From NCBI GenBank assembly GCA_044892505.1, contig CM097882.1:148180001-148244000 (forward strand): 64,000 nt of DNA, written 5' to 3'. The translations under genes and the position numbers were made by a program. The stretch is from Schmidtea nova. Taxonomy: Eukaryota. Of the stretch, positions 5,480 to 36,350 are shown piece after piece (positions within the stretch are counted from its first letter, which is position 1; each line of letters starts with the position of its first letter). The notes beneath the pieces are model-generated. The model had not been told where the DNA came from. It searched no databases and saw only the letters and a list, made by a program, of their open reading frames with translations.

Positions 5480-5869
5480 TGCTGGTGTGTTGGTTGGATG
5501 GACAACTGAGATCATTAAGATTTTATATGTTAGGGTGATCTCGCCAACATAAAAACATTCCCCCGCTGACACCCATGATGTATCCCTAACTACTCATCAT
5601 GTTGGTGTTGTGTCAACGTTGTGAAATGACAAGGCAGGTGAGCAACCTTTCGGCTACTATTCCCTTGTTTATTCACGGGTCCACCACTACCGATAGAAGG
5701 TGTTTGTGGATTTCTTTCGGTCCCTTTATAACGCGCTCCTTCCTTTGCTCTAGGGTAATTTAATTTTAACGTATCTGCAGCTTTTAAATGAATCAGGTTT
5801 TCATTACATTCAATTCTCAAACATTCCACAAGCAAACAAGGCAAGTCAAATCATTCATCTATAATACAT

Positions 5870-6451
5870 TTATTTATAACTTAACAACACGGATGGTCTG
5901 ATTACATTCCATAATTCCTGCTCCGAGAGTCCACTGAGCAGATCGACCTCTATGCCCAGGCGTTCGGCATATGCTCGACGCTCTCTACGTTTCTTCGCTC
6001 CGAGGCGATTCCTTCGCTTTGTCCTTTGAGACCCTTGTGGAATTATTGTGGTTGCTTCAGTAGTTGTAGTTACTGTTGTCTCCTTTTCGGTTTGTGTACT
6101 CGCAGTAACCGCTATCGAGTTTACCCATCGGTTGAAAGTGCTTGCCCGGATCACTGGGCGTAACTGTTCCGTTATGAATTCTTGGGTCGACACCTTGAGA
6201 TAATTCGACAGTTCCAATTTCAACGCTGCGACCTCTCTAGCCTGCTCGTCGGCTACCTGTTCAGCTCGATGCCTCGCTTGTAGAATGGCCTTAACCCTCT
6301 CGGGATTAAACCACGTCGTTTTGACTCTTTGATGTTCATCGCTTAACTGACGTAAGCGGCTCTCAAGGACTCGGGAACGTGCCTTGTGTTCTCGTGCCTC
6401 TTGTTTGTAGTTTCGATTTTGGTTCTCGCTCATATCTGTAAAATGTGACAT
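5870..6451 (-). CDS. LTR-encoded ORF, 193 aa, coiled coil plus Arg-rich segment (3' LTR copy)
   Basis: ATG-initiated; open in both LTRs; contains QRTKRRNRLGAKKRRERR. Confidence 0.55.
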   Translation of the reverse strand: MSHFTDMSENQNRNYKQEAREHKARSRVLESRLRQLSDEHQRVKTTWFNPERVKAILQARHRAEQVADEQAREVAALKLELSNYLKVSTQEFITEQLRPVIRASTFNRWVNSIAVTASTQTEKETTVTTTTEATTIIPQGSQRTKRRNRLGAKKRRERRAYAERLGIEVDLLSGLSEQELWNVIRPSVLLSYK

Positions 6452-6631
6452 TAATTAGGGTATGGGTAATCTGTCTGGTTTTCCAGTCACAGTTTTCTTA
6501 TCAAACAATTGTGCTTCATCCTCATGCTCTTCTCATACATTCGAAACCAAAAATAAAACCCTTTTAAAACGAATACATTTATTTTTCTATTTATAACAGG
6601 TATTCCCTCTCTGAATGTGTCTCTCTCGCGA

Positions 6632-7258
6632 TTAACTGAACGATCGCAACTCCTGATCGGCAGAATTCTCGTCTCGGCGAATTCCAGTTTCGTGGTACAG
6701 TTCTGGTGCTGGGTACCAACTCAATTTATCCCGGTAGATAAATACTTCCCATAGACGAAGATCCTTGGGCTCCGGATGTTGATCCAATGAGACGCTTCCT
6801 GGAGCGTTTGGGTAGACTTGGACTTCCCCAGTGTCGCTACACCGAGGCCTGTCCAGCAGCAAGTATCCGAGTTGGTAAAATGCGTGTCCTGACATCATCC
6901 CTGTGCTTAGCAGCCAGCGGGGTTGATTTGCATCATCCACGAACTGATAGAACCATCGGTCAGATTTCTGTTCGGTAGGGTTCGAGGAGGACACCCAATT
7001 GGCATCTCCTTCCCACCTCAATTGCCACTGGAATGCGCACGCTGGGATGCTAGCAGCCATACTCATGTGGTTTCTCACCCATCGACGCAGGTGTCGACGT
7101 GCTAGTTTGATAATTTGACGTGGAGCTTCCCTCTCTCCTTTGATCTCGAAATTCGCATTAGGCCTGACGACGGAGCGGATGCGCCGTTTCCTTCGGAAGG
7201 TACGATCTTCCATCTTCACGGTTAGTGAGTCTATAGGCTTCCCTAGACAGCTTTCCAT
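6632..7258 (-). CDS. LTR-encoded ORF, 208 aa, basic N-terminus, Trp-rich globular part (3' LTR copy)
   Basis: 627-nt open frame with normal globular composition; open in both LTRs. Confidence 0.55.
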   Translation of the reverse strand: MESCLGKPIDSLTVKMEDRTFRRKRRIRSVVRPNANFEIKGEREAPRQIIKLARRHLRRWVRNHMSMAASIPACAFQWQLRWEGDANWVSSSNPTEQKSDRWFYQFVDDANQPRWLLSTGMMSGHAFYQLGYLLLDRPRCSDTGEVQVYPNAPGSVSLDQHPEPKDLRLWEVFIYRDKLSWYPAPELYHETGIRRDENSADQELRSFS

Positions 7259-8685
7259 TTTGACCGTGTTGCTCGGAGCTGAAGAAGATGTCTAGATTAA
7301 TTGACAGACACTGCTGCTGATCACAACTATATATACCGTTCGACCTACCCGACTTATCGACCAATTCTCCGTAGGCCTCAGCAGATCATTTGTATTCTAC
7401 TAGACAAGTGACTGCGATGTAACGTAGGCCGTGGTTAACGCTTTATTTTGTGAACTAATTCACTCCGCACTTTTCTCAGACTGTTTAGCTACGCTAAATT
7501 TGTATTATTGTTTACGATGTTATTTTTATATTTATTTTTCATCAGCCGTACTCAGTCACTCAACAATTTTCTATCAATGATCATAACCATCAACTATCAA
7601 CGATCATGTTACTTTGGGGAACTCTAACGATCTCTTACCGAGAATACCTTCTAATGTCCATCATTTTATCGGTTCTCAATGCATGTAACTTGTTTATTAC
7701 ATCTCTCGGGGGCTGGATACGTGTGATAGAATGCGCAGTCGACTACTATTACTCCTTGATGCTGTACCCTCCGTCTCTGAATTCATAGGGTCATACGACT
7801 TATGCCTTGCATACTATTATTCTCGTCAACACTCAATTTATCAGCACTGGTGTTACTTGTTATATGTACATGTCCCTTGTCTAGATATCGCCATGATGTA
7901 TACCATTCATACGAGGCTGTCTTTACTTTAATTGAATTTACGATCGCTAGATTTTACTAGATACCCTATGTGCATTCACCCCCTTCCGCTTACCAAATAT
8001 TTAGGAAACTTATGGTCCCGCCGCATCGGTACCTCACATGAAAATGTGTTGCACCGAGAGGCCAAGAATCCGTCAGGCTGTTAGGCCTCCGGAAAATCCT
8101 TATCGATTTTAGCATAGTTACAAATTATAATTATGAGGGTTTAAGATAATAATACAACTCGAATTTACCTTTTATTTCCACTTCCAATCAGATTTCCAAT
8201 ATTTTCTACAAGTTGTCAGTATTTCACACTCACTTACACTTGGTAAAAATAACATTGACAAATACTGATTTGACTCCGGTATTTATACTAAACCGGTGTT
8301 GTTGGTCAGCCAATCAGCATCGAGTGTGTGTGTCTGTTTGGTCATTCTTTTGTGCTTGTCGGCTTTTTGCTGCCTAATTTTACTCAATGATTTGTTTGTT
8401 TAATCATGCGGTAAGTTTATTTTTGTGTGATTTAATTTTTATTTTATTTTGTTTTAGGTCTTCGGTGACGTCCGCCCACCTACTGTCAATTTCAGATTTT
8501 TTTCTGCTTCGCATGAGTGAGTTTTTGAGTTTTATTTTGTTCTGATTACTGCTTTATTTCTTTTAGATGTTGCCGCTCATTTGCTACTTTTTATGCTGGT
8601 AATTTATTTTGTTGTTATTTTTTGTAGCTTTATTTTATTGATTGTATATTATTTTCGGATGCTGCTCGATTTGGCTGGCCCAACA

Positions 8686-8887: not shown

Positions 8888-9412
8888 TCAGGTCCTTTCA
8901 CTGGTTGACTGCAATTCGTATCGGGCTTGAATTTGTCGCAGATGGCTTCTCATTCTTTGTTGGGTTTTTGCTTCTCTTCTGGCGCATCTACACATTATCG
9001 TTTGTTGTTGTTTGAGGCTTCTGATTCGGTACAGGGTATATGTGATCACGATGATCAGGATGATTGTCAATATTGTCATTGTGACTATTCCAGCGATGAT
9101 CCATCTGTTTCGGATTTCAGATTCGATTTGGGTTTGGCCTTTGATTGGCTTTAGTTGATATTGAAATGTTCTGTGGATTTCTCGGATCTTCTCGATTTGA
9201 TTGAATAGGGTTTGTAAGGGTTTGCGATGATCATGACTGATTCGCATTTGTCGGATTAATTGTTTCAAGTCTTCTCTGACTTCGTTTAGTTGTTTTTCAA
9301 TCTCTTGGGATATCTCGTTTGACAGGGTTCTTTGGATTTCGGTTGTTGAACAGTTCATTATTGTTGTAGTTAACATAATCGTTAGGATTGGTAGGGTTTT
9401 GAGCCAGATCAT
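8888..9412 (-). CDS. Small type-I membrane protein (signal peptide, helical ectodomain, TM helix, basic tail), 174 aa
   Basis: Hydrophobic N-terminus MIWLKTLPILTIMLTTTI; TM WIIAGIVTMTILTIILIIVITYTLY followed by RIRSLK. Confidence 0.75.
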   Translation of the reverse strand: MIWLKTLPILTIMLTTTIMNCSTTEIQRTLSNEISQEIEKQLNEVREDLKQLIRQMRISHDHRKPLQTLFNQIEKIREIHRTFQYQLKPIKGQTQIESEIRNRWIIAGIVTMTILTIILIIVITYTLYRIRSLKQQQTIMCRCARREAKTQQRMRSHLRQIQARYELQSTSERT

Positions 9413-9485: not shown

Positions 9486-10646
9486 TTACACATCTGTCTC
9501 CTCTGGTTCATGGAACCCTTCATCTTGGAGTTCCATTGATGGTGGTGGTATAAACGGTAACCACACCACTCTACTTCTCCACATTGCAATTTCATCTTGA
9601 TACGTTCGAGAGATTTGTATCTCTTCATCTAACAGATACTCCATATAGTCTGATTGTTCGCTCAGAGTTTCGATTTGTCTTTCCATTTCTTCCATTTTTC
9701 TCTTAAGGGCTTCTACTTCTGTTGGTTCGGTTTCTACTTCTATGGTTTCTTTCTCTGCTTTCAGGGTTATTATCTGCTGTTTCAGTTCCTCGTTTTCTTT
9801 CGTCAAATTCGTTATGTTTTCCTCGTAAGCTCGGTTTGATTCCGCATGTCTTTCTTTCACTGCTTTCAACTCCATTTTCTTTTGAGTCACCACCCCTTGA
9901 TAACCATTTACATCTCTTTCCAGGCTTTCTTTTTCCCTGATCAACTTTTGTCTTTCCGCTTCCTCTTTCTGTCTAATGCCTCGCATTTCTCCATTTATCA
10001 TCTGTATTTGCCATTGCGTTTTCTTTAGTTCCTTTGACTGTTCTCGAATAAATCGCTGTCGTTTTCGACTCCATTCTTTGTTTGTCTGTTCTTGTCGCTT
10101 TCTCTGTTCCAATTCCTCTTTCAATTCGTCTATCTCTTGATACAATTTCCAATCTTCGCTGTGTGCTGTCCTTCTGATTATCTCTTTGGCTTCTTTATAC
10201 ACTCGTTTCGACTCCATCTTCCAATGTCTCGCTTGAGCTTTGATTGCTAGTATTTTTACCTCCATCTTTTCCTCTTGTTTCTCCCTCTCTTCTCTTCGCG
10301 TTTTCATCATGTTTTTGTACTGTTCTGCTTGTTTTCTCATCAATTGATAGGTCTCTTCTATCTTCTGTCGACTTCGTACATTCGTTCCTTTTAGCTTCTC
10401 TATTTGTGTTGTCAGTTGTAGTATCTCTTTATTCACTTCCTCGAATTCTAATTGATATAACTCCATTCGTCTTTCGCATTTTAGTTTCTCGTAGAAATTG
10501 TTTGTCATCACTTCGTGTAATTCCCTGGTTCTTTGTTCCACTTCCACTTTACATCTCCTTTCGATTTCTCTTTCTATTGCTTCTCGTTCGTTCGCCATCT
10601 CGTTTCTCGTTTCATCTTCGATTACATGTTCATTTGCATTTTCCAT
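9486..10646 (-). CDS. Long coiled-coil protein, 386 aa, ends in ETDV
   Basis: 1.16-kb ATG-initiated ORF, E/K/R/Q-rich with heptad character. Confidence 0.8.
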   Translation of the reverse strand: MENANEHVIEDETRNEMANEREAIEREIERRCKVEVEQRTRELHEVMTNNFYEKLKCERRMELYQLEFEEVNKEILQLTTQIEKLKGTNVRSRQKIEETYQLMRKQAEQYKNMMKTRREEREKQEEKMEVKILAIKAQARHWKMESKRVYKEAKEIIRRTAHSEDWKLYQEIDELKEELEQRKRQEQTNKEWSRKRQRFIREQSKELKKTQWQIQMINGEMRGIRQKEEAERQKLIREKESLERDVNGYQGVVTQKKMELKAVKERHAESNRAYEENITNLTKENEELKQQIITLKAEKETIEVETEPTEVEALKRKMEEMERQIETLSEQSDYMEYLLDEEIQISRTYQDEIAMWRSRVVWLPFIPPPSMELQDEGFHEPEETDV

Positions 10647-10735: not shown

Positions 10736-12073
10736 CTACTCTAACCATCCTTTCGTTGACTTCGTGTTCATCACTGTTGTACTTGTTTTCTTTTCGATTT
10801 CCAACTCTACGTATAGGTTGTCGTCGTACAACATTTCCCACATTTTTTGGTGTGGTATGAATTTTGGTTCTCCTGTCGCTAATGAACATTCGGTGGTTGG
10901 TCTTTTGTAAGCTTCGTGCTTACCATCGATTTTAAATATCCTCACGATCGTTTCTTTCGAGATTTTGACCCTCATTATCGCCTTTGTCTCTAGCGGCCAT
11001 TCTAATATATCGTCGTAACCACCTTTACACAACGCAAAGAATAATGACACATGCGTTTCCTTTCCTGATCCATCTCCATTTGGATAAATTCTCATCCGGA
11101 CTTTGTATCCGTTTTTCCACAGATAGAATGGTGGACTTGTTACCGACACTTGACTTCCTGCTTTTGCTGCTGCGAACTTTTCGTTGAAGTTCTTGATTTT
11201 CCATACATATGGTGCAACAGGTAAACTCTCGATATCCTCTGCATCTCGCACCCATATTTGATGTCGTACATTTACCTCCTTTACTAGCGTCTCTATGACT
11301 TTGATTTTCTCCATCATTTTCTCTCTGGTGAGCTCGAATTGCTCTCTCGTTTCCAGTAATAACTCCGTCATTATCCTCTGAGATTCGATTTCTTTTCCCA
11401 GCTTCTGTATGGTTTGTTCCATTCCGTTTAAATTTTCTGTTAACATCTCTGCGTGTTGTACCGTCTCTGTTTCTAAATGCTCTTTCATTTCTTTGCTCGT
11501 TTTCTTTACTACACATCCTTGTTTGCTCCATACGCACTTTCTTGGCCTTGCTTCACATCGTTCCCAATGTTCTCTCAACATCACCTCTTCTCCGGCTTCA
11601 CAATTACTTGGACAAATTCCTCTGAATTTTCCGCACACTTTCTCTTCTGCTACATTGAGATGTTCTGTTTCGATTATCTCTCTTGTCTCTCTTTGTTCAC
11701 AGTATTGACATTCTATTATTTCTGCTTTGCACTCGTTCTTGTGACTTTTCAGCTGCTTGATGGTTATTGTCTGTTGACACTTTTCGCATAGCGCTTTCTT
11801 GTTTTCGCATTTCTCCAGATGTTGTCTTAACTCGATTATTTGTCCTTTCCATTCGCATGGTTGGTTTATACACTCTGTTTTTATCTTCCAGATTTCCTTT
11901 TGGATTGCTTTGTCTGGTTTCGTCTCGTTGATTAGTAGTTTATCGTCACACTCTGGACACTTTCTTGTCTCACTTTCACTGATTATTTGCAATATACACT
12001 TGGTGCACATCCTGCATCCACATTCGGTTTGTCTCGGTTTCAACAGTAAATTTTTACACTTTACACACGTCAC
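10736..12073 (-). CDS. TRAF: TRAF-family protein (RING, TRAF zinc fingers, coiled coil, MATH)
   Basis: RING CVKC...CGCRMCTKC...CPEC; zinc fingers CINQPCEWKG...HLEKC; MATH motifs YVWKIKNF, SPPFY...GYKVRMRIYPNGDG, THVSLFF, DDILEWP. Confidence 0.95.
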   Translation of the reverse strand: MTCVKCKNLLLKPRQTECGCRMCTKCILQIISESETRKCPECDDKLLINETKPDKAIQKEIWKIKTECINQPCEWKGQIIELRQHLEKCENKKALCEKCQQTITIKQLKSHKNECKAEIIECQYCEQRETREIIETEHLNVAEEKVCGKFRGICPSNCEAGEEVMLREHWERCEARPRKCVWSKQGCVVKKTSKEMKEHLETETVQHAEMLTENLNGMEQTIQKLGKEIESQRIMTELLLETREQFELTREKMMEKIKVIETLVKEVNVRHQIWVRDAEDIESLPVAPYVWKIKNFNEKFAAAKAGSQVSVTSPPFYLWKNGYKVRMRIYPNGDGSGKETHVSLFFALCKGGYDDILEWPLETKAIMRVKISKETIVRIFKIDGKHEAYKRPTTECSLATGEPKFIPHQKMWEMLYDDNLYVELEIEKKTSTTVMNTKSTKGWLE

Positions 12074-12238
12074 ATTTACTCCTCATTGTCGATTCTCTCC
12101 TCTAAGAATCTTGATTGTTTGGTAGTCTGCTTCACTTTCTGCTCTCATTCTACAACAATATTTACATCAATTTCCCCATATTTTTGATTTTTTCTGGTTC
12201 TTTATTTACACGTATTTACACAATTTTCCGCTTATTCA

Positions 12239-12589
12239 CTATACATCCTCAGTTGAATCTGGCTCTGGATACACGTCTATTTCATTTACAATCCAGCTCG
12301 TCCAACTATCCGGTATCTCTTCCTCTTCATGTCTCGTTAATCTGTCAATTTCCTCTGCTTGCCAATTGTTTACTTCATTTAATGTTCGGTTCTCGTTCTG
12401 TAATTCGTTTATCTGTATTTGTTGGATCTCGATTTTGTTCATTGCTTCAAAATTACAGTTATAACTTTCGGTTAGTAATTGCGTTTTGGCCGTCAACTGG
12501 CTCTGTAATTCGTTTATTGTTCTGGCTAGCAGGTCACATTGCACTTTCCATCTTGTCATCATCGACATCTCTGTGGTTTCTTGATTCAT
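12239..12589 (-). CDS. Short coiled-coil protein, 116 aa
   Basis: ATG-initiated heptad-rich ORF with TATAAATA at 12651-12644 upstream. Confidence 0.6.
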   Translation of the reverse strand: MNQETTEMSMMTRWKVQCDLLARTINELQSQLTAKTQLLTESYNCNFEAMNKIEIQQIQINELQNENRTLNEVNNWQAEEIDRLTRHEEEEIPDSWTSWIVNEIDVYPEPDSTEDV

Positions 12590-12823
12590 CGTTTTTCTAG
12601 ATTATATACATCATTCTCTTTTTTCTGTTTTTATGTTTTATAATATTTATACCCATACGTATACGGTTATGCATTGGTTTTTACAATATTATTTACACTC
12701 ATATTCCACCCTCTATACAACTATCACTGGTTTTCCTTCGTACAGTTCCTCGTCCTCGATCTGTACCCACATCTCTTCAAAGGGTACAAAACAAGGATAT
12801 AAAGGTAAGTACGGTTTTTTTAA

Positions 12824-12962
12824 TGACTCATAGGTAAGATTTATTTGGATCACTCATTGGTATGGCTCATTGGTATGACTCATCAGTATGACTCATCAGT
12901 ATGACTCATCAGTATGACTCATTGGTATGACTCATCAGTATGACTCATCAGTATGACTCATC
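12824..12962. promoter_or_regulatory. Tandem 13-bp array of AP-1/GCN4-type sites (ATGACTCAT)
   Basis: Seven TGACTCA at 12876, 12889, 12902, 12915, 12928, 12941 and 12954, plus one at 12824. Confidence 0.75.
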
Positions 12963-13109
12963 AACAAATATTAACAAAGACAATGCAATCCATGTGCAAA
13001 GAAACAAAGACATTGCAATCCATGTGCAACGAAACAAAGACTAATGAAATATAATTTTTAATAATAATAATTTTTTGTACAGAGATAAATTGTGTGTGTG
13101 TGTGTGTTT

Positions 13110-13216
13110 AAGACAAATTACTGTACTCATTGAACGCGCGTTTCACGCGCGTTCTTCTTCCTTGTTTTATAAGACAAATCACAGTACTCATTGAACGCGC
13201 GTGAAACGCGCGTTCT
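13110..13216. repeat. 61-bp tandem unit with a perfect 10-bp-stem hairpin, loop inverted between copies
   Basis: GAACGCGCGT-TTC-ACGCGCGTTC (13132-13154) and GAACGCGCGT-GAA-ACGCGCGTTC (13193-13215); runs into an N-gap. Confidence 0.85.
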
Positions 13217-14389
13217 NNNNNNNNNNNNNNNNNNNNNNNNNNNNNNNNNNNNNNNNNNNNNNNNNNNNNNNNNNNNNNNNNNNNNNNNNNNNNNNNNNNN
13301 NNNNNNNNNNNNNNNNNNNNNNNNNNNNNNNNNNNNNNNNNNNNNNNNNNNNNNNNNNNNNNNNNNNNNNNNNNNNNNNNNNNNNNNNNNNNNNNNNNNN
13401 NNNNNNNNNNNNNNNNNNNNNNNNNNNNNNNNNNNNNNNNNNNNNNNNNNNNNNNNNNNNNNNNNNNNNNNNNNNNNNNNNNNNNNNNNNNNNNNNNNNN
13501 NNNNNNNNNNNNNNNNNNNNNNNNNNNNNNNNNNNNNNNNNNNNNNNNNNNNNNNNNNNNNNNNNNNNNNNNNNNNNNNNNNNNNNNNNNNNNNNNNNNN
13601 NNNNNNNNNNNNNNNNNNNNNNNNNNNNNNNNNNNNNNNNNNNNNNNNNNNNNNNNNNNNNNNNNNNNNNNNNNNNNNNNNNNNNNNNNNNNNNNNNNNN
13701 NNNNNNNNNNNNNNNNNNNNNNNNNNNNNNNNNNNNNNNNNNNNNNNNNNNNNNNNNNNNNNNNNNNNNNNNNNNNNNNNNNNNNNNNNNNNNNNNNNNN
13801 NNNNNNNNNNNNNNNNNNNNNNNNNNNNNNNNNNNNNNNNNNNNNNNNNNNNNNNNNNNNNNNNNNNNNNNNNNNNNNNNNNNNNNNNNNNNNNNNNNNN
13901 NNNNNNNNNNNNNNNNNNNNNNNNNNNNNNNNNNNNNNNNNNNNNNNNNNNNNNNNNNNNNNNNNNNNNNNNNNNNNNNNNNNNNNNNNNNNNNNNNNNN
14001 NNNNNNNNNNNNNNNNNNNNNNNNNNNNNNNNNNNNNNNNNNNNNNNNNNNNNNNNNNNNNNNNNNNNNNNNNNNNNNNNNNNNNNNNNNNNNNNNNNNN
14101 NNNNNNNNNNNNTTTCAACAAATATTTAAAAATAAAAACAAACAGATAAAAATGTCACAAATAACAACCAATTGATAAAAAAAAAATATAATAAAAATTT
14201 TAAAATAAAAAATTTATTTTCCTCAAAATAAATTCGTCACAATAATGTTTGTTAAAAATCAAAATCATCAATATTCTTTTTTCGCGTGAATTTTCTTTTT
14301 TCTTTAAAAATTTTTCTTATTGGCCTATAGTCTATAATAATAATAATAATAATAATAATGAATAAAATAAAATAAAAAATAAATTTACC

Positions 14390-17215
14390 TCAATATATAC
14401 CGGTGGATGTAGATGGCTGATCACGCAATTGCTGCTCCATCCTCACCAGGTATTCGTGGAGTCTGCGTGATTCAGCCGTTTCGCCATCATCGAATTCTTC
14501 ACCGTCATCATCAAATCCATCAGGTTCGGCTGGGGTATTGGTTTGATCATAACCTATAATAGTATTTTCTACCCTATAGTGCCCATATGCGAAACTTTTG
14601 TTTTTCGACACCCAATTGCGTTTGTCGTCGTTGCAATTGAGTGCCGTTTTTGTATTTTTCACACTGTAAACCTGATGATTTTTTGAGACTATACGAAACT
14701 GCGGGACTTTATATATTTTACTTGTTGTGTAACAGTCTAGGTAATTCGAATGGTTAAGTCCCGCAGTAGCCAAACATATGCCCTTGGCTTTTAAACACTC
14801 CTCGTCGCCAAGTAAACCATAGCATTTAGGCCGAAGAAAAACCCACTCTTCATATTTGAAGCCCTTATTTTCGTCCTTAAACTTTCCTATAACAGAATCC
14901 AAATTACGCGAAAATAAGGGATGGCTCGGGTCATAGTTTGAAGTATCTAAAAGTTGATCCCTCACCATAGCGGGCAAAAGAACAGAAAGCCTACAATTAA
15001 CAATTTCAAGAAAAAAGGAGTCTGTGTCTCCTGCTGCAATATTAATCTTACAATTAAACTCTTTCCTATATTTCTCTAACTCTATATATTGTAGTTCATA
15101 CATTCTTAGTTTAGACAAGTCCAAGACCGTCTGTCCTATATAACTTGGCCTATCTAAACACACAGACTCCTTCCTCAAAAGCACTGATATAAGATTATGG
15201 TCAATTTTCGTTGATTTTCTAAAATACGGGCTACTGCTATATGTAATTAATTTACGTGCCGAATTGCACAGTCTTAAATTGATACGTTTTTTCAGATTCT
15301 CTACGATTTTGCCGTAGAGACTGTTATTTAATAACTTAAAATAATTTTTGTCGAGTTTCGTGGTGGAAGAAGCTCTCAAAGCAGTATTTGTATCCACGTA
15401 TTTCTTAAAAAGCCTACTTTGATGATATTTAATAGCTCGATGAATTTTGGTCACTACAACACCTAACCTCAGAAACATCTGCAAAAGTCGCCAATGAAGC
15501 ACATAGTTTTTCTTAGGCATGTGCGTCAAAAGCAACTTATGCACCTTCGAACCTGGCACACACATCTTTTCAGCAGCTACTGGTAAATCATCCAGTAAGT
15601 CGTGAATAGATGCCGGTATCTCTAAATCCACTTCTATGGTATAACCATAGTTAAGTGAACATAAATCAACCGTAGTGCACTCCAACAAGATGTCATGAAG
15701 CAAGTGGTCATCCGTGACCCAAACAAAGTCCCCGTCCGGTAAGTTTTGTGAAAGAGCCCAGCCATACAGATTATTAATATCTATATACAGCAACTCTGTA
15801 TCTGGGCCTGATTTAACATGATGTTTATTAACGAAAGTGAGGCCGCCCCTGATTCCACCCTCAAAAAAGTTGTACATCTCCATATCTTGCAAAAGCTCGA
15901 TAGGAGATTCCAAAGTCATTAATGCAGAACACCAGCTCATACCTGGTATACCCAAAAAATTCAACGGCTCAAGTTTATTATGAGCTATACTCTTTGCACG
16001 AAATTGTTGAAAATAATCAGCCAAAAGAAATATGTCGAGTTTCATGTAAACCATCATATAATCAAATAATGAGGTACACGAATTTTCTCTCCATATTTCT
16101 TTTGCCTTTTCATAATCAGCAATTTCGACACCTTCCCAAATCGGCGGCAATTCAGTGGTCGACCTCAAGACAGATAAAGATGTAGCAACATCATATGGAA
16201 AAATTCCCTTACTGGTGATAATAGTCCCGGTAAATTCCGAAGAAGTAAGAGGAAAAGATGTTAGAGTTTTTACTAAGTTATTTAAAGATTCGCTAGCAAA
16301 TTGATACGAATCGATGAACTTCACTGTGAGTGATCCGATTCTCGCAAAAAGACTGAGAAACTTCTCACTGGTGACAGGAACACAGCTAATGTTCCACGAC
16401 TCGTATTTAGAAAGTCCGAATTTGAGGATATGATGTAAATCATATCCCCGTAGATTATGAAAAACTATCGGCAAAGTGTGTCGAATTTGCCTATTTATAT
16501 TACATTCGTTGCATGCTGCTCCTAGGTAAGCACCTGTAAAGTGATCGTGGTCTTTAACAGGATTTACTAAAATATTTTCACACAAGTAGCAGTGTGTTGC
16601 ATAAGAAAAATGTTGTATGTCTTCGTAGGTTAATATTATTTGCTTATTTTTATTTGCGAAATAATAGGGCGTTACGATTTTGCGACTTATATTTTCAATT
16701 TCTTGCAGGAATTTGGCAACGCAATCAAGGCCATAGAAGGATTTATATAATTTAACCCCAGTGAAATTATTAATAAGTAATAAACCCGCAGAAATGGGCA
16801 AATGTTTTTGGTAATATTTCGAGTCGTGAGGTAAAATTGCCTCAAAATCGGCATAAATTACAAAAGGAGGGGTCACTGTCTTCGTCCAGTCGCTAAAACG
16901 TAAAAATTTATTATTAGGAAGTGTATACAAAGTTGTGCCTATTTGGTTGGCATCACAAAGACCACGATGTCTCTTGAATGTATCTGAATTACGGAAGCCA
17001 TGCAAGCACCTAGGACACCATTTATTATAAATTCTCACTGGGGTTATCGCCGAAGTTTTACAATTTAAAAATTTGTCGATGTTATATATTCCTGCGTAAT
17101 GAAATTCTTTTTTATTTTCAATTAAAAGTAGGTTTATGACAGTGCCCCCCACTACTTTACTTTTATAGATAATATCGATGAATGGATGTTTCATCACTTC
17201 ACTTTTATTAGTCAA
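14390..17215 (-). CDS. polB: Family-B DNA polymerase, Polinton/Maverick (DNA_pol_B_2)-like, with a Zn/endonuclease-VII-like insert
   Basis: ExoI IYADFEA, ExoII FHNLRGYD, ExoIII YMKLD; motif A YIDINNLYG, motif B KLLNNSLYGK, motif C GDTDS; insert CYLC...DHDHFTG...ACNECN. First ATG is at 17194. Confidence 0.93.
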   Translation of the reverse strand: MTNKSEVMKHPFIDIIYKSKVVGGTVINLLLIENKKEFHYAGIYNIDKFLNCKTSAITPVRIYNKWCPRCLHGFRNSDTFKRHRGLCDANQIGTTLYTLPNNKFLRFSDWTKTVTPPFVIYADFEAILPHDSKYYQKHLPISAGLLLINNFTGVKLYKSFYGLDCVAKFLQEIENISRKIVTPYYFANKNKQIILTYEDIQHFSYATHCYLCENILVNPVKDHDHFTGAYLGAACNECNINRQIRHTLPIVFHNLRGYDLHHILKFGLSKYESWNISCVPVTSEKFLSLFARIGSLTVKFIDSYQFASESLNNLVKTLTSFPLTSSEFTGTIITSKGIFPYDVATSLSVLRSTTELPPIWEGVEIADYEKAKEIWRENSCTSLFDYMMVYMKLDIFLLADYFQQFRAKSIAHNKLEPLNFLGIPGMSWCSALMTLESPIELLQDMEMYNFFEGGIRGGLTFVNKHHVKSGPDTELLYIDINNLYGWALSQNLPDGDFVWVTDDHLLHDILLECTTVDLCSLNYGYTIEVDLEIPASIHDLLDDLPVAAEKMCVPGSKVHKLLLTHMPKKNYVLHWRLLQMFLRLGVVVTKIHRAIKYHQSRLFKKYVDTNTALRASSTTKLDKNYFKLLNNSLYGKIVENLKKRINLRLCNSARKLITYSSSPYFRKSTKIDHNLISVLLRKESVCLDRPSYIGQTVLDLSKLRMYELQYIELEKYRKEFNCKINIAAGDTDSFFLEIVNCRLSVLLPAMVRDQLLDTSNYDPSHPLFSRNLDSVIGKFKDENKGFKYEEWVFLRPKCYGLLGDEECLKAKGICLATAGLNHSNYLDCYTTSKIYKVPQFRIVSKNHQVYSVKNTKTALNCNDDKRNWVSKNKSFAYGHYRVENTIIGYDQTNTPAEPDGFDDDGEEFDDGETAESRRLHEYLVRMEQQLRDQPSTSTGIY

Positions 17216-17242
17216 GTCAACTAACGCATTTTCGTCATACGA

Positions 17243-17329
17243 TGAGTCATCGATGACGTCATTTATGAGTCATCGGGGGTCATGGATGACTCATCGATGA
17301 CGTCATTTCCTTTGTTCTGCGATGACTCA
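17243..17329. promoter_or_regulatory. Cluster of four AP-1 (TGA[C/G]TCA) and two CRE (TGACGTCA) sites in the ank-polB spacer
   Basis: AP-1 at 17243, 17266, 17287 and 17323; CRE at 17254 and 17298. Confidence 0.7.
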
Positions 17330-17345
17330 TGGTGCACACTTCTGT

Positions 17346-18614
17346 CTACTTCCACTGTATTGCGATATCCATGATGGAATTGTTCTTTCCATTTTTCCCT
17401 TCGATTTTGGCTCCTGCTTCGTATAACTCGTTTAGCACTTTGCAGTTCGTCTTCTTCCTTGCTGCGATTATCATGATTGTATCTCCGTTATCATCAACCG
17501 TATTCATATCTGCTTCGCACTTGACCATTGCTTTCGTTATTTCTAGCACTTCGTTTTCTTTCTTTCGACGTAATGCCCAGTGTATTGGCAATCTCCCATC
17601 TTTTGATAATAGGAATGCCACTGGCATTTGATTTTTGATCGTTTCTATGTCGGTCTCGTTATAATCTCCTTGTGCGTATCTGTGCACTTTCTCTGTAATT
17701 GCTCCTAATATCTCCAACGAATTTTTATTCTCTTTGAATTCCGATAATCTTTCCTGCGCTTTTGCTACGATTGCGTCTAGTCTCTCTTGGTAATCAGCTT
17801 TTGCGTTGAACAACACTGCTTTGCTTCTTATTCGTGTTTGCATCTGTTTCATCCGTTGGTCTTGATACACTGCTTGTCGGAAGAATTGTCCATACTTCAA
17901 TGCTTCCACCAGCTCTTTATATCGCTTGCTTATTTCTTTGTGCTGCTTTTGGATGTCATAGAAATGTTCGAAGCTCATATCCGGATTCCATTGCTTATCA
18001 CACCATTTCTTGATTAATCCGAATAATTCCCTCTTTCTGTCTTCCAACTTGTATTCTCTTGGGTTCTCGCTAACTCGTAACGTATCTCTCGCTATCAATA
18101 CTGCAAGTGTTTTTGGATCGTACGTTACTTCTAATAGATGTTTCAGTAACGCATTTTCTCCCCCTGTGAACACTTCATTACAATCTATGACCCACGAATC
18201 TCCTTCTGGCCGTTTCCACTTTAGCAATATTCTCCAGGTTCTACTGTTTCTTACTCCGATTGCTTGTTTCAGGATAGATCCTCTGGTTAGTTCATCGATT
18301 TCCCACGTGGCATTTTCCGTAATATACTTCAGTATTCGGTGATTCGCTCTATCAATTGCATGATTCAAGAATGTTCGTCCTTCTTTATCTTTTGTCATCC
18401 AATTCGATCTGGTGTTTCCGAAAAGCTTGATTATTTCATCGTTTCTTCCATGAATCGTCATCATCATAAGTGGAGTGATTCCTTCCCAATTTATTTTGTC
18501 GATCTCTCCTCCACCCTCGAGTATCATCTCTACGATCTCTTTTACTTTTTCGTTTCCACTGTGCTTGATTGCATTGTGCAACGCTGTGTTACCGTCTTTG
18601 TCTTGTAGATTCAA
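17346..18614 (-). CDS. Ankyrin-repeat protein (in-frame continuation of pol after one TAA)
   Basis: Repeats QDKDGNTALHNAI, NWEGITPLMM, KDKEGRTFLNHAI, SKDGRLPIHWAL, DDNGDTIMIIAA. There is no ATG start: the frame reads TAA-ACA-TTG directly after pol. Confidence 0.88.
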   Translation of the reverse strand: MNLQDKDGNTALHNAIKHSGNEKVKEIVEMILEGGGEIDKINWEGITPLMMMTIHGRNDEIIKLFGNTRSNWMTKDKEGRTFLNHAIDRANHRILKYITENATWEIDELTRGSILKQAIGVRNSRTWRILLKWKRPEGDSWVIDCNEVFTGGENALLKHLLEVTYDPKTLAVLIARDTLRVSENPREYKLEDRKRELFGLIKKWCDKQWNPDMSFEHFYDIQKQHKEISKRYKELVEALKYGQFFRQAVYQDQRMKQMQTRIRSKAVLFNAKADYQERLDAIVAKAQERLSEFKENKNSLEILGAITEKVHRYAQGDYNETDIETIKNQMPVAFLLSKDGRLPIHWALRRKKENEVLEITKAMVKCEADMNTVDDNGDTIMIIAARKKTNCKVLNELYEAGAKIEGKNGKNNSIMDIAIQWK

Positions 18615-18617
18615 TGT

Positions 18618-21600
18618 TTAAGGGATTTCCTCTAACAGCGTCCTTGTTATTGGATGTGCTGTTCTATCCTTTGCATACTCCATTACATTCTTTCGAACTT
18701 CTGTCAATATATTGAAATCGAGCCACCATTTCCATTCTGGTATAATTTCTCTGGTCCTCTTTGCAAGTTCCTTGATGTCTATTGCTTCTCTTCGATTGTC
18801 TTCTAGACTTGCTTGCGGCTTTGGTTGTACTCGCAACATATTAATTCTCGCCGTCTGTGATCTTGTCATCACCCGTTTCTCTGGTGATAGAGTTGCTGTC
18901 TTTGATATTTTCCTGCATCGACATGCATTCACGTATATTGGTCTTACCAATGGATTGTTCACCAATCGTACTCGCACATTATTTTCGTTCACTGTTGTTA
19001 TTTCATATGGCCCTTTGCCTGGTCGTTGGAGTTTCTTCACCGTACCGGGTATTATCTCTGGTGTTTCGATTATCACCCAATCTCCAACTTTTAAATCATG
19101 TGCTTTCACATTCTTTTTCTGATCATGCAGATCCTTGTAACTCTCTTGATAGAACTTGATGTTTAGTTCCGCCGTTTTCCAGATTTCTTGCATTCTTTCT
19201 TTGAACTTTGTAACGTAATCGTCAACCTCCATATACTGTGATAATGGTGGTTGGTACTCCAAATCGATTGGTAAGTTGCAATCTCTTCCGTACATCAGTT
19301 GGAATGGACTTAGCTTTGTTGCCGCATGTATTGACATTCTGTATGCCATTAAACACAGGTTTATATACTCGTCCCAGTCAGTCTGATGTTTACTGACGTA
19401 ATTTGACAACATGCCTATCAATGTTCCATTGAATCTTTCTGTTTGTCCGTTCGTTTGTGGATGGTATGGGGATGTTCGTAATTTCGCAATTCGGAAGTAG
19501 TTCGTAACTTCGTCTAATATTTCACTCATGAAATTCGTTCCTTGATCCGTTAGGATTTTCTTTGGTGTTCCGTATCTGCAGCATATCTCTTCCACCAATA
19601 TTCTCGCGACTGTTTTTGCCTTTTGATTCGGCATTGTGAATGCTTCTGGGAACTTTGTTAGATAGTCCGTGACTACTAATATATACTGATTCCCTTTTAA
19701 ACTTTCCGGCAATGGCCCAACTACGTCCATTGCTATCGTCGCCATAGGTTCTGCAGGTATTGGCATAGGTTTCAGTGGTGTTTTCCACTTCGTTCCGACG
19801 TTCTTTCTTGTCGCACAGGTTACGCAGTTCTTTATCCATTCTTTCACATCATCTTCCATGGTTGGCCAAAAATACTTTTGCCTCAATCTCCCGATTGTCT
19901 TTTTCGCTGACATATGTCCGCCTAATTTTCCGTCATGATATTGAGTCATGATTTCCTTTCGTCTATTCGCAGGTAAGCACATCAATCTCCGTTCTCCATC
20001 TTGTATCAATAACCATCCTTTTTCCAACACGTATCTATGTTGATATTTCTGCATATGTTCGCGTAACACTTGGTTCTTGCCGAATATTTCTATCCCCCTT
20101 TCTTTCAAATACTTGCTGATCAATCCCAACTCCTCGTCTTCGAGTTGATCTTTCCTTAATTCGCTGAAATCCAAATCCTCCGCTATTAATGCACATATTT
20201 TTAGAGCGTTCAGGTTCACCAATTCTGGAAATGTAAACCTTGACATGCAATCCGCGTTTGCATTTGATTTTCCTGCTTTAAACTTTATGAACGGTGAGTA
20301 TTCTTGTAACTGCATCGCCCAACGCATCAATCTACTTGATGATTCTTTATGTTGACCTAACCATACCAATGGTTGATGATCCGTCGAGATATATATTTCA
20401 TGACCCCACAATAGGTATTTGAAATGCTTGATTGCCAATATTATCGCATAGGCTTCTCTTTCCGTGACTGAGTAATTTCTTTCATGCTTCCTGAATGTTC
20501 GACTGTAATATCCAATTACTCTTTCCTTGCCTTCTTCATCGAATTGGCCTAGTACTGCTCCTGCTGCATATCCACTTGCGTCTGTTGCCAACAGAAATGG
20601 CTTCTTAAAATCTGGATGGACCAATATTGGCGCTGTAATCAGCTTGTCTCGTAATGTCTCAAATGCTGCTTGCTGTTCTGCTCCCCACACAAACGACACA
20701 TCTTGTCTTACCAATTCCTGCATTGGCTTTGATATTCCTGCATAGTCCTTGATAAACTTTCGATAATATCCACACAATCCCAAAAATTCTTGTATTTGAG
20801 TCACTGTCTTTGGTGGTGGACATTCTTTGACTTTCTCAATATTCCTTGGATCTGGTTCTTTACCTTTTGCTGATACAATGTGACCTAAGAATGTCACTTT
20901 CTCTTTTGCCCAATCGCATTTGGACGGCTTCAATTTCAGTTTCCACTGTCTCAATTTCACGAACACATTTCTGATATCTTGTAAGTGATCTTCAAATGTT
21001 GCGGAGTAGATTAATAGATCGTCGATATACACCATGCATTGTTTTATGCCATGTGTTACGAAATTCATGCATCTCTGGAATGATGCTGGCGCGTTTGTTA
21101 ACCCAAACGGCATTTTCTTGAATTGGTACAGATCTCGTCCGATTGTGAAAGCTGTCTTTTCTTTATCCTCGTCTTTCATTTTTATCTGCCAAAATCCGCT
21201 TTTTAAATCCAGTGACGTGAAATAGGCTGCTCCTTGTAGCGTCAACAACATTTCGTTTATGTCTGGCAGTGGGTACGTGTCTCTTTTCGTAACGGCATTT
21301 AATCGTCTGTAATCGATACAGAATCTCTGAGTTCCATCCTTCTTTTTCACCATCACCACTGGGAATTGCCAGGGTGAGCAACTAGGTTCGATGACCTCTG
21401 CATCTAACATCTTTTGTACCTCTTCTTCTGCTACTGCTTTTTGAGCTTCTGCCAGTTTATATGGTCGTAATGCGATTGGCGTTTCGTCCGTCAACGGTAT
21501 CGTGTGTAATGTTACATCGCATGTTCCTAAATCTAAATCCGATGCTGCGAATATATCTTGATACTCCATCAACAGTTTCTGTAGCTGTTCTTTTTGTCGT

Positions 21601-24317
21601 TCATCCAACAACACACTGTCGATTTTCCATGGTAATTCGCCTTTGCCTTTCTCATTCTTGTCTGGTATTTCGATTTCGGACATGGGTGTCAATTTACCCA
21701 AATTCTCATTCTCGTATATTATCTTGTCCTCTTCGTTGAAGTTTACCAGATTAATCGGTATCTCACCTTCTTGGTTTATCGTAACCAGTTCTCTTGCCAT
21801 TGGTAATTCCTTCTTCGCTTCGAACTTCTTACTTGGTTCGAATATCATGTCTCCTTTTATTGTCGAATCGATCTTGACATAGCACATCATTTCGTGCCTC
21901 GCTGGCACTACTATTTGTTCCGCATTTGCCACTTTAACTTTCATTCTGCAGATTTTTCCTGTTCTATCTTTTAGTTTCATTGCTCCTAGATCAATTACGA
22001 TTTCCTTGAACAGGTCTGGCATCAGGTCAGTTCCAATAATACATGGTACACTCAGCGATGGTATTACAGCGATGTACGTGTTGATCTCTGCACCTCGATG
22101 CTTAATTTTTACAAACCATCTTCCGGCTACTTCTACTGTCTCTTGACTGCACGCGATTACATGTACATTCGTCTTCTCGATTTCTCCTTGGTTTTTCTCT
22201 GGTATATAGTTAATGTCGATTGCTGAAATATTTGCGCCTGTATCGATCATGGCTTCGATTTCTCTTCCGTTTATTTCTACGGTTGTTGTTAAGATCGGTC
22301 CCATATTTGTGGACATAACTGCTATCGTGTGTGTGTCTTCTAACGAGTCTACGCTTCTACCTCGTTTTACTTTGCATCCTTCGGGAATTATCGGGTATAT
22401 ACTTGTCATCGGCATCATCTGTATCATATTCGGCTTCGCTTTGTATATCGGTTCGTTATACATTGACTGAGGTGGAGCGCTGTATCTCCAATTCTCAACT
22501 GCACTCTTTTCGTTATACTGTGGGATCTGGTTTATATTCGCTTGTCCTCCTTGATCGTCATCGTCATCGTTGCTTGAATCATCTTGTGTTCGATATCCCC
22601 TCACTCTTTCCCATAATCCTTTCCTTTCTTTCTTTAGTTGTCGTCTTGCTTGCTCATCTTGCATTATCTTTTTGAATTTCCTTCCAACATCTTCATTTGT
22701 TCCTTTCATTTTTGCAAGTATTTTCAACAATCTCTTTATTCGATGTATGTCTTTTGAGTGTCCGTGTAACACCATTGTTTTCGCGAGAAATGGTAAATAC
22801 CCTACTACCATTTTCCAATTCACTTTCTTTTCTCTCTTGTAGATATCGAAACACGCTAACATTTGCGTAATTATCACTCTGACGATTTGTATTATCAATA
22901 TAACACCCAGTATTCCAGCCATCATTTGTCCGAATATCAGGAATCTTCCCCACATTGCCTTCATCATATTTTCTGTGGCTTTCTTGAAATGTGCCGGTGA
23001 CAACAGCAGTTCATAATTCGGTCCTTCTCGATAATTCGTTCCTCCCGTTATCGTTACGATATTTGACAGTAATGCTTCTCTTCTTGCCGGGAATAATATA
23101 TTCTGCCTTGCTGCTTCCAAATCTTTTGGACTATAGATTCCGTTGTTTGAGACATCTACGTCGCTGAATTGTCTATCTTTTGATAACTGCATTAGCTCAA
23201 ATTCTCTTGGTGCTATCACTTCGGTTCTTCCTGGGAACATAACCCATTTGCCATCTGGCTTCTGATAAAGCGGTCCGTACGCGTTACTACAGTTGAATGG
23301 ATTTGGTTCAAAACCTGGTGGATTGATGATTCTCGTCACCGGTTGAACGTATCGTACTTTTCCTTTATAATCGATTTCTAGTTCGTTTGTACATTGTCCA
23401 GGTTTCAACTGCGTTGTTGCTGCTAGCGATGCATGTGTCTTTTCGCAAATGTATACATACATTGCCTCTCCAACCACTCTTCCGAAATGTCCTTCTCTCA
23501 GTGGTAATAATGGCATCGCGCTATCTGGATTAGTAATCGCTACGGCCAACTTTGTCTTCAATATTTCTCGATTCAGTATACAATCGTTGTTTATCAGATC
23601 GTAGTACACTTTTTGTAATGAGGCTTGTCCTCTATGGAATAAGAAGTCCATTTTATTATTCACATACAAGTGTAGTTTGATATCCATTGTGTCGATTTTG
23701 GGTTTCGCATTCGGCACTTCCTGCTTTGACACGTATATTCCTGGATAGTTCGTTTCGTATACCGTTGTACTACACTTAAGGGTTGCTTTCCCTTTTATGA
23801 ATCTCATTCCCACATCCTGATTTGTGGTTATCAACACTGTTGGTGTGGTTCTCATCTCTATCCGTTTTTCTCTATGATCTGGTTTCAGTTGTCTTTTGTT
23901 CTCTAAAGCCTCTTTGAGATGTTTTGCTCTAGCTTTGTCATCATCGTCTTCTTCCTGGAACGTTTTTCCTTGAATTTCGTCGAACTTTGCTCCTTGTAGC
24001 AGTTGTAATTGACATTCGTTCATTTTTGGTTTGTATACCAATGTTGACATTCCCGTTTGACACATGCTCCTGTCAATTTTACACATGGATAACGTTTTCA
24101 TTTCTCCTGTGGTCGGTTCGAAGAATGCTTCGTAGCTTTTCAGTTCGACTATATACGTATCCATCACCACTAAGTTGGTTGCGGGTACTCCGAATATTGG
24201 GTAGGTTTCTCCTTGACAATATCCTTCTCCTCCCGTAATCCGTCCTGCTACATAATACGTCTGTTGCAACATCATTCGTGGTTTTCCTTTTATCTTTATT
24301 TTGTCTCTCGTTGTCAC
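18618..24317 (-). CDS. pol: Env(C-terminal part)-Pol fusion ORF: class III glycoprotein ectodomain and TM, then PR, RT, RNase H, integrase
   Basis: Glycoprotein segments YVNNKMDF...NDCILNREIL, GEAMYVYIC, NGIYSPKDL...ILFP and TM FLIFGQMMAGILGVILIIQIV. PR IDTGA; RT YIDD; RH TDAS, TDHQPL; IN H-H-C-C, MDVVGP, TDQG, TERFN, GPY. Confidence 0.96.
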   Translation of the reverse strand: MTTRDKIKIKGKPRMMLQQTYYVAGRITGGEGYCQGETYPIFGVPATNLVVMDTYIVELKSYEAFFEPTTGEMKTLSMCKIDRSMCQTGMSTLVYKPKMNECQLQLLQGAKFDEIQGKTFQEEDDDDKARAKHLKEALENKRQLKPDHREKRIEMRTTPTVLITTNQDVGMRFIKGKATLKCSTTVYETNYPGIYVSKQEVPNAKPKIDTMDIKLHLYVNNKMDFLFHRGQASLQKVYYDLINNDCILNREILKTKLAVAITNPDSAMPLLPLREGHFGRVVGEAMYVYICEKTHASLAATTQLKPGQCTNELEIDYKGKVRYVQPVTRIINPPGFEPNPFNCSNAYGPLYQKPDGKWVMFPGRTEVIAPREFELMQLSKDRQFSDVDVSNNGIYSPKDLEAARQNILFPARREALLSNIVTITGGTNYREGPNYELLLSPAHFKKATENMMKAMWGRFLIFGQMMAGILGVILIIQIVRVIITQMLACFDIYKREKKVNWKMVVGYLPFLAKTMVLHGHSKDIHRIKRLLKILAKMKGTNEDVGRKFKKIMQDEQARRQLKKERKGLWERVRGYRTQDDSSNDDDDDQGGQANINQIPQYNEKSAVENWRYSAPPQSMYNEPIYKAKPNMIQMMPMTSIYPIIPEGCKVKRGRSVDSLEDTHTIAVMSTNMGPILTTTVEINGREIEAMIDTGANISAIDINYIPEKNQGEIEKTNVHVIACSQETVEVAGRWFVKIKHRGAEINTYIAVIPSLSVPCIIGTDLMPDLFKEIVIDLGAMKLKDRTGKICRMKVKVANAEQIVVPARHEMMCYVKIDSTIKGDMIFEPSKKFEAKKELPMARELVTINQEGEIPINLVNFNEEDKIIYENENLGKLTPMSEIEIPDKNEKGKGELPWKIDSVLLDERQKEQLQKLLMEYQDIFAASDLDLGTCDVTLHTIPLTDETPIALRPYKLAEAQKAVAEEEVQKMLDAEVIEPSCSPWQFPVVMVKKKDGTQRFCIDYRRLNAVTKRDTYPLPDINEMLLTLQGAAYFTSLDLKSGFWQIKMKDEDKEKTAFTIGRDLYQFKKMPFGLTNAPASFQRCMNFVTHGIKQCMVYIDDLLIYSATFEDHLQDIRNVFVKLRQWKLKLKPSKCDWAKEKVTFLGHIVSAKGKEPDPRNIEKVKECPPPKTVTQIQEFLGLCGYYRKFIKDYAGISKPMQELVRQDVSFVWGAEQQAAFETLRDKLITAPILVHPDFKKPFLLATDASGYAAGAVLGQFDEEGKERVIGYYSRTFRKHERNYSVTEREAYAIILAIKHFKYLLWGHEIYISTDHQPLVWLGQHKESSSRLMRWAMQLQEYSPFIKFKAGKSNANADCMSRFTFPELVNLNALKICALIAEDLDFSELRKDQLEDEELGLISKYLKERGIEIFGKNQVLREHMQKYQHRYVLEKGWLLIQDGERRLMCLPANRRKEIMTQYHDGKLGGHMSAKKTIGRLRQKYFWPTMEDDVKEWIKNCVTCATRKNVGTKWKTPLKPMPIPAEPMATIAMDVVGPLPESLKGNQYILVVTDYLTKFPEAFTMPNQKAKTVARILVEEICCRYGTPKKILTDQGTNFMSEILDEVTNYFRIAKLRTSPYHPQTNGQTERFNGTLIGMLSNYVSKHQTDWDEYINLCLMAYRMSIHAATKLSPFQLMYGRDCNLPIDLEYQPPLSQYMEVDDYVTKFKERMQEIWKTAELNIKFYQESYKDLHDQKKNVKAHDLKVGDWVIIETPEIIPGTVKKLQRPGKGPYEITTVNENNVRVRLVNNPLVRPIYVNACRCRKISKTATLSPEKRVMTRSQTARINMLRVQPKPQASLEDNRREAIDIKELAKRTREIIPEWKWWLDFNILTEVRKNVMEYAKDRTAHPITRTLLEEIP

Positions 24318-24761
24318 TTATCCATGTTTAAACAATGCTTCGCAGTCTTCTCCTTGCAACACGATTGGTTCTCTTTCCGTTCCTGACATGACAATTGCTG
24401 AATAATGTCCTCTCCCACAGTAGAATGCGAATCTCGTCTTCTGCACCTTGCATTCATTCACCATTGTCTTTATGAGTTCTGCTTCTTGATACACGTGGTA
24501 CCATTGTTCCTTTTTAATCTCTCTCAACTCTACTGGAGTTGCATCTTTGCATTGCTCCGTACCTCTCAATGAGTACTTTTCTCCCAATTTCATTTGATCA
24601 CAATCAAATACTTCGAACGTTGTTACACCTTCTGTGCTTAACAACCATACTAACATCATCATGATTATCGAGTTTAAATTCAACGTCGATCTTCCGTTTC
24701 CTTGCATCGTTTGTCTATTCTCCATTTCTTTCAATACTCCTTCGAGTTTCTTTCTCATCAC
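24318..24761 (-). CDS. env: Envelope glycoprotein N-terminus (signal peptide plus first Cys-rich segment), split from the rest by one in-frame TAA
   Basis: Hydrophobic NSIIMMMLVWLLSTEG, then FEVFDC...C...YHVYQ...ECKV...FYCG..H, as in chuvirus-like glycoproteins. Same frame as 18618-24317; ATG at 24758. Confidence 0.85.
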   Translation of the reverse strand: MMRKKLEGVLKEMENRQTMQGNGRSTLNLNSIIMMMLVWLLSTEGVTTFEVFDCDQMKLGEKYSLRGTEQCKDATPVELREIKKEQWYHVYQEAELIKTMVNECKVQKTRFAFYCGRGHYSAIVMSGTEREPIVLQGEDCEALFKHG

Positions 24762-34514: not shown

Positions 34515-34694
34515 TAATTAGGGTATGGGTAATCTGTCTGGTTTTCCAGTCACAGTTTTCTTATCAAACAATTGTGCTTCATCCTCATGCTCTTCTCATA
34601 CATTCGAAACCAAAAATAAAACCCTTTTAAAACGAATACATTTATTTTTCTATTTATAACAGGTATTCCCTCTCTGAATGTGTCTCTCTCGCGA

Positions 34695-36342: not shown

Positions 36343-36350
36343 TATTTATA
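36343..36350 (-). promoter_or_regulatory. Candidate LTR TATA box TATAAATA (copy at 8280-8287)
   Basis: About 400 nt inside the sense start of the LTR, flanked by a CCGGT/ACCGG inverted repeat. A CCAAT motif lies upstream; TCAGT and a GTAAGTG donor (36300-36294) lie downstream. Confidence 0.5.

Follow-up and report, generated by a model that had tools for sequence, protein, structure and literature searches.

TRAFs form trimers through their coiled coil and MATH domain, bind the tails of receptors or adaptors with MATH, and use the RING and zinc fingers for ubiquitin signalling. To our knowledge, viruses usually recruit host TRAFs rather than encode one, and a TRAF-like open frame inside a retrovirus-like element raises the question of whether it is a working cargo gene of that element, where it came from and what it could do there. 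We addressed this in the window (the whole stretch of 64,000 nucleotides analysed here) and in related copies.

The TRAF gene lies in a giant LTR retroelement

The frame belongs to an LTR retroelement of 31,266 bp on the minus strand (5480-36745), the strand on which all its features below are read. Repeat comparison placed the 5′ LTR at 33543..36745 and the 3′ LTR at 5480..8685. The two LTRs, about 3.2 kb each, are 99.6% identical (10 mismatches and 1 gap in 3206) and are flanked by the 4-bp target-site duplication CAGG, indicating a young insertion. From the 5′ LTR the order is RING ORF, gag, fusion protein, protease, RT, RNase H, integrase, ankyrin repeats and a four-ORF cassette. The RING ORF (152 aa, 32525..32983) encodes an IAP-type RING without a BIR, as judged by Pfam and by a search for the BIR pattern, which was negative across 30001-33545; this ORF measures 156-158 codons stop to stop in the majority of 150 scored matches. 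Pfam and ORF analysis assigned 24780..30007 to gag with CCHC knuckles and a linker to env, and Pfam assigned 18618..24758 to a mononegavirus-type fusion glycoprotein followed by protease, RT, RNase H and integrase, and 17350..18617 to ankyrin repeats, which are in frame with pol in uninterrupted copies. The polyprotein of the window copy is broken by one frameshift and three in-frame stops; in other copies its frame is open across the gag-env-pol joins (2,736-3,127 codons), with a transmembrane segment and a short tail at its end. Because the BIR is absent, we classify the element, by its sequence, as a Burro-type giant Gypsy and not Burro1 itself.

The cassette between the polyprotein and the 3′ LTR consists of ORFs of 116, 470, 386 and 174 codons, the second being the TRAF gene. 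The first (12239..12589) is a coiled-coil-like accessory ORF of 116 aa with a dN/dS of 0.059, which lies 5′ of TRAF in all three families described below (A, that of the window copy, B and C). The third (9486..10646, 386 aa) is likewise coiled-coil-like with a dN/dS of 0.117, and the fourth (8888..9412, 174 aa), recognised as an ORF and by cross-family comparison, has two hydrophobic stretches. The 116-aa protein matched no family over the cut-off, and profile comparison with TRAFs gave a probability of 4%; in every one of the three families it has an acidic patch followed by paired tryptophans and, close to its end, an invariant E-P-D-S. The end of the 386-aa ORF (9486-9530) contains D-E-G-F-H-E, which is found in family B too, and E-T-D-V; we take the former to resemble a beta-TrCP degron mimic and the latter a class I PDZ-binding end.

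Elsewhere in the element, two ORFs of 193 and 208 codons without a Pfam match lie within the LTRs (5870-6451 and 6632-7258, repeated at 33933-34514 and 34695-35321), and families B and C have relatives of the 193-aa ORF at 31-34%. Tandem repeats in two sets (units of about 84 bp and 36 bp) occupy 30500-31808 between the RING ORF and gag. Outside the element, the window contains nested inverted repeats over about 1.6 kb (39413-41043), likely a non-autonomous DNA transposon, and a second, unrelated Gypsy-type pol (973 aa) with a 461-aa ORF lacking a Pfam match (46765-51498, plus strand), this region being flanked by inverted repeats near 45405-45505 and 51796-51894.

Domain architecture and damage in the window copy

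The sequence-only reading had described a complete RING-zinc finger-coiled coil-MATH protein at 10736-12073; the architecture was confirmed, whereas the completeness was not. The minus-strand frame 10736-12082 comprises 448 codons stop to stop without an intron, and ORF analysis with family alignment defined the gene as 10736..12148, 470 codons from the family ATG at 12148; the start proposed earlier, position 12073, is an internal GTG. At codon 22 (12083..12085) the window copy, alone among the 30 closest copies, has an in-frame stop, six codons before the first RING cysteine, and the next in-frame ATG (12010) falls within the RING. The window copy cannot make the full TRAF protein.

The RING finger (11948..12067) has eight cysteines, with Cys for the usual His, and was recognised by its ligand spacing, the Pfam TRAF3-type RING match (E 1e-4) being under the cut-off. 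Five TRAF-type zinc fingers (11453..11872) were assigned by ligand spacing and the structural model, again with a Pfam zf-TRAF match (E 9e-4) under the cut-off. The ligand count thus comes to eight RING ligands in TRAF spacing plus five zinc-finger sets, and the N-terminal part matches the solved N-terminal structures of TRAF6, 5 and 2. TRAF2, 3 and 5 have a RING plus five fingers. In an AlphaFold model (pLDDT 92, pTM 0.48), residues 207-284 form a long helix, a predicted coiled coil (11231..11464). The MATH/TRAF-C domain (10796..11209) was found by Pfam over the cut-off (E 4e-27) and by structure matches: mammalian TRAF1/2/3/5 were the best solved structures for MATH (E 1e-24 to 1e-26), and Foldseek on the model returned TRAF3/1/2/5 TRAF domains first (E ~1e-17). 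The element TRAF differs from these mammalian proteins in being the orthologue of no single one and in its peptide groove, where alignment shows the polar residues kept and the serine patch of human TRAF2 replaced. Since the groove also varies among families A, B and C, the binding targets cannot be assumed.

The TRAF gene is maintained by purifying selection in family A

From 855 candidates 40 copies were scored and the best 30 taken, so that intactness is overstated. The gene was open over its full length in 27 of these 30 closest copies, with stops in L001 (the window copy), L011 and L015. When the list was ranked on MATH alone, about 62 of 75 family rows (assigned by eye) had the full frame. 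The mean pairwise dN/dS of TRAF across the 30 copies was 0.093, with 0.058 for the N-terminus and RING, 0.100 for the fingers, 0.081 for the coil and 0.099 for MATH; variants common to at least two copies gave 0.091 and singletons 0.26. As controls we used 14 of the 20 fetched upstream loci, leaving out six rearranged ones, and obtained 0.011 for RT, 0.027 for RNase H, 0.030 for integrase, 0.016 for env and 0.093 for ankyrin. The TRAF value is therefore 3-8 times those of RT, RNase H, integrase and env (0.011-0.030). Element sequence extends through all 20 upstream loci, which follow the standard ankyrin-pol order in 14 cases and are deleted, rearranged or interrupted in six. Genome-wide probes of 29 bases found 145 and 142 sites for TRAF and 129 for RT, about one TRAF per RT, and the gene is thus standard equipment of the family.

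Instead of being pseudogenised, absent or neutral in most copies, the TRAF is a family-wide cargo gene under purifying selection that is broken in the window copy. A neutral passenger decaying in the element would look like the broken window copy, of which this description is true; for the family it is refuted by dN/dS values of 0.09-0.24 in three families and by retention at about one TRAF per RT, and we give it practically no weight.

Related families and the element-like codon style

A search with a sister protein of the TRAF found families B and C, which have the same cassette as family A in the same fixed order. Family B accounts for about 107 of 113 scored matches by frame length (8 fetched) and family C for 5 matches (4 fetched). 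Identity of the TRAFs is 52% for A-B, 46% for A-C and 43% for B-C; the RT of families B and C is 91-94% identical to that of family A. The RT, RNase H and integrase regions are present upstream in four of the five B loci and in one of the four C loci; upstream sequence in two further C loci is limited to env, protease and ankyrin, and the last gave no match there. TRAF dN/dS was 0.109 in family B (8 copies) and 0.239 in family C (4 copies). A fourth family, D (L081, L082), has MATH alone, inside a gag polyprotein.

At four-fold third positions the TRAF gene has A 0.59 and T 0.05, close to env-pol (A 0.56, T 0.08) and unlike seven host TRAF frames (A 0.30-0.41, T 0.20-0.41), and its codon usage correlates with that of env-pol at r 0.89 and with that of pooled host TRAFs at r 0.53. 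The A-rich sense-strand codon style ascribed to the gene in the sequence-only reading was hence borne out against env-pol, and the long residence in the element proposed there agrees with this style and with three families at 43-52% TRAF identity.

The position of the gene bears on a reading in which TRAF serves the element's own proteins, either relaying a signal from an FN3-transmembrane polyprotein tail or acting as a scaffold for the cassette proteins. In all three families the polyprotein immediately ahead of TRAF has a transmembrane segment and a conserved cytoplasmic tail at its C-terminus, the cassette order is fixed, and family D has an FN3 match in the region equivalent to that tail, the only family in which one was found. 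The tail shows a weak P-x-E/Q resemblance and not a full TRAF-binding motif, and gene neighbourhood alone does not show binding. We regard this reading as quite unlikely.

Some features of these families stand apart from the TRAF itself. The polyprotein C-terminus (L041:521-3301; L093, L100) has, in all three families, W-P-D-V/I in the tail behind the transmembrane segment, which we take to resemble the Box1 motif of cytokine receptors. L103, L107 and L113 are likely inter-family recombinants: family-C cassettes lie behind an ankyrin region 79-81% like that of family A with RT-integrase missing, and a family-B cassette adjoins an env 98-99% like that of family A.

The element TRAF was probably captured from a flatworm host

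In a careful 44-row tree the element TRAFs formed one clade (100/100), and three unnamed proteins were its sister group (100/98). P0047, P0176 and P0164, the nearest sister proteins, could be host or element genes. Support for the wider triclad clade was below 80 in this tree, which included six long-branch rows, and 99 in a quick tree. After removal of 14 rows (long branches and duplicates), the element TRAFs, the named Dendrocoelum and Dugesia TRAFs and the host intronless genes made up a 17-row clade (100/99) whose base was poorly resolved. The best-ranking named full-length matches among 1.84 billion representatives were also Dendrocoelum and Dugesia TRAFs. These sequence comparisons make a triclad flatworm the likely host of the element. 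In a MATH-only tree, family D, on a long branch, joined A, B, C and the unnamed sisters (99/95), which suggests from sequence a single capture for families A-D.

The triclad TRAF2-like proteins (D. japonica TRAF2-like A; Dendrocoelum lacteum TRAF-2, -4 and -5; host L051, L055, L056, L057 and L083) share with the element TRAFs the architecture, the C-G-C RING variant and a common clade, and are intronless in the genome studied. They differ in that identity is only about 28-33%, and in that the element TRAF has the element codon style, an altered MATH groove and hundreds of mobile copies. Since the host members of this clade also lack introns, each being one open frame, and share the Cys-for-His RING, neither feature marks capture. 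We rejected the Cys-for-His RING as an element-specific character, as it is common to host and named triclad TRAFs and occurs in a few echinoderm TRAF3-like proteins. Of the earlier proposal of a retro-captured host gene, host origin is therefore supported by the tree, whereas intronlessness carries no weight as evidence. The element TRAF was likely captured once, long ago, from the flatworm host's own TRAF group, as far as the sequences indicate. The scored candidates did not include the donor gene, and no host orthologue of P0103 turned up in the 113 that were scored out of 2,783; metagenome contigs yielded no locus for P0047, and viral contigs no relative of the TRAF.

The opposite direction, in which host intronless TRAF genes derive from element copies, would fit the intronless state of the host clade members and the poorly resolved base of the 17-row clade. 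It conflicts with the finding that no host gene nests within the element TRAF clade, with the lack of element codon style in host genes and with the presence of orthologues of the host subgroups in Dendrocoelum and Dugesia (host L055, for instance, is sister to Dugesia japonica TRAF2-like A). We consider it very improbable; a much older element-to-host transfer may have occurred.

A foreign insert upstream and a model for expression

A foreign piece at 12779..17349, present in the window copy only, contains a likely Polinton-type DNA polymerase frame (14390-17269) and stands in for about 2.6 kb of the tail of the polyprotein. Its codon style is unlike that of the element, and its DNA has a 66% match in L046, to the polymerase of a Polinton-like element there. 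By site count, eight AP-1-consensus sites (12824..12960) are part of this piece; each of the other 29 copies has 0 or 1. An AP-1 feed-forward promoter 0.7 kb upstream of TRAF was therefore rejected, the array lying in the foreign insert and being absent from the other 29 copies. AP-1-consensus sites occur at both ends of the piece, with four more at 17243-17323 in addition to the eight at 12824-12960, and sequencing runs cover its first part to great depth. The Polinton-like element itself (L046:1056-9901; A32-type ATPase, integrase-chromo and polymerase) occupies another position within the polyprotein tail.

An acceptor-like YAG directly precedes the TRAF ATG (12150..12170) in 28 of 29 copies with a located start, and in families B and C too. 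Across three families all 9 of 9 cassette starts have a YAG within 8 nt of the ATG, as against 121 of 516 background ATGs, the nine starts being homologous across families and so not nine independent tests; within family A the proportions at cassette starts were 25/25, 28/29 and 28/28 copies with a located start. Four runs of uncertain type cover the stretch, and among the rows listed no joint fell at the predicted acceptors. TRAF may thus be translated from a cis- or trans-spliced sub-genomic mRNA that uses the AG before the ATG.

Possible functions of the element TRAF

Classic decoy TRAFs lack the RING. The RING region is the most constrained part of the element TRAF, whereas decoy TRAFs are without one, and a RING-dependent function is for this reason likely. 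The protein would trimerise through its coiled coil and MATH, bind receptor or adaptor tails with MATH and take part in ubiquitin signalling through RING and fingers. Its pro-survival output would pass through a host TRAF2/3-type stress pathway (TAK1-p38/JNK, TBK1 or AKT) and not through NF-kB. According to PMC7586133, knock-down of planarian TRAF-2A/B leads to more cell death, and the IAP cargo of Burro1 is reported to protect stem cells (as cited in PMC13465017). On the strength of the RING constraint, this cell death and this protection, we lean towards a pro-survival protein, a RING-dependent signalling adaptor or ubiquitin ligase that would keep the host cell from dying during element activity, a reading we hold to be probable on balance.

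NF-kB, one of the outputs that the sequence-only reading had named for TRAFs, is doubtful here, because PMC13563047 reports that no clear NF-kB homologues have been identified in Schmidtea, divergent RHD genes being present (see also PMC4484250). A Rel-homology search of the genome, run without a positive control, gave 0 matches. cIAPs usually contact TRAF2. A contact of this type between TRAF and the element RING protein, a partner considered earlier, is not expected, because the latter has an IAP-type RING without a BIR.

The features of MATH also admit a counter-defence role, in which TRAF dampens antiviral signalling by poisoning host trimers or by degrading a sensor or restriction factor through MATH and RING. 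The MATH groove differs among A, B and C as if tracking host targets, family D keeps MATH alone in its polyprotein in a decoy-like form, and host TRAF2, 3 and 5 homologues are TBK1-regulated response genes according to PMC13563047. A pure decoy would not need a conserved RING and five fingers, an objection that leaves the degradative version unaffected, and there is no sign of positive selection, the dN/dS of MATH being 0.099. We judge this role unlikely, though worth keeping in view beside the pro-survival reading.

A broader and rather more speculative proposal, to which we assign a low probability, is that the Burro lineage acquired an entire working TRAF ligase in a single ancient capture. 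The ligase would be expressed from its own spliced mRNA, in the manner of the accessory genes of complex retroviruses, and would form a self-contained survival module with the membrane tail, ankyrin repeats and IAP-type RING, the MATH-only form of Burro1 being a reduced descendant of that capture. Were this so, the TRAF expansion of planarians would consist in part of such element copies, in their hundreds, and these could contribute to the survival of host stem cells.

Relation to known Burro elements

Burro1/GYPSM1 and Burro2-4 of Schmidtea mediterranea (Jurka 2007, Grohme 2018) are described in PMC6431247, which also reports MATH_TRAF_C in the Burro1 polyprotein and in an accessory ORF of a Dugesia tigrina element. 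TRAF expansion (PMC6109357) and Burro1 expression (PMC8532177) have been treated, and a review has appeared (PMC7958881). As described in PMC6431247, Burro1-4 resemble the present element in exceeding 30 kb, in their long LTRs, in a mononegavirus-like env in frame between gag and pol, in ankyrin repeats and in RING and MATH_TRAF_C cargo, and the layout of Burro1, with MATH inside the polyprotein, is that of family D (L081, L082). The element studied here differs in having a stand-alone full RING-finger-coil-MATH gene in its 3′ cassette and a RING protein without a BIR. For the BCL2-like segment of Burro elements, a Pfam and PDB search of 24780-25619 gave no match. The Burro-like element of Dugesia tigrina, compared by description only, likewise has MATH_TRAF_C outside a polyprotein of about 5,100 aa, in an accessory ORF (PMC6431247); as described there, however, the ORF is upstream and only MATH is named, whereas here the gene is downstream and full length. 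The B-IAP of Burro1 (Lee et al. 2026, as relayed by PMC13465017) is also a captured cell-survival gene in a Burro element; it is a caspase inhibitor with BIR plus RING backed by functional tests, whereas the TRAF is known from sequence alone.

The TRAF gene is accordingly a fuller version of a cargo already known from Burro elements. Our literature search found no description of a full-length, selected TRAF in a 3′ cassette, and Grohme 2018, Lee 2026 or their supplements may contain one. Here selection has preserved a whole TRAF in a retrovirus-like element while three families diverged, and beside the Burro1 IAP the gene offers a second cargo for asking how giant elements persist in planarian stem cells. 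It also calls for caution in gene counts, as at least 145 family-A sites and about 107 family-B matches (by frame length) are element copies. The host TRAF expansion is real too: on C2, large tandem arrays of short MATH genes or exons (G000:C2:405-455 Mb, L061-L080) form a clade separate from the element TRAF.
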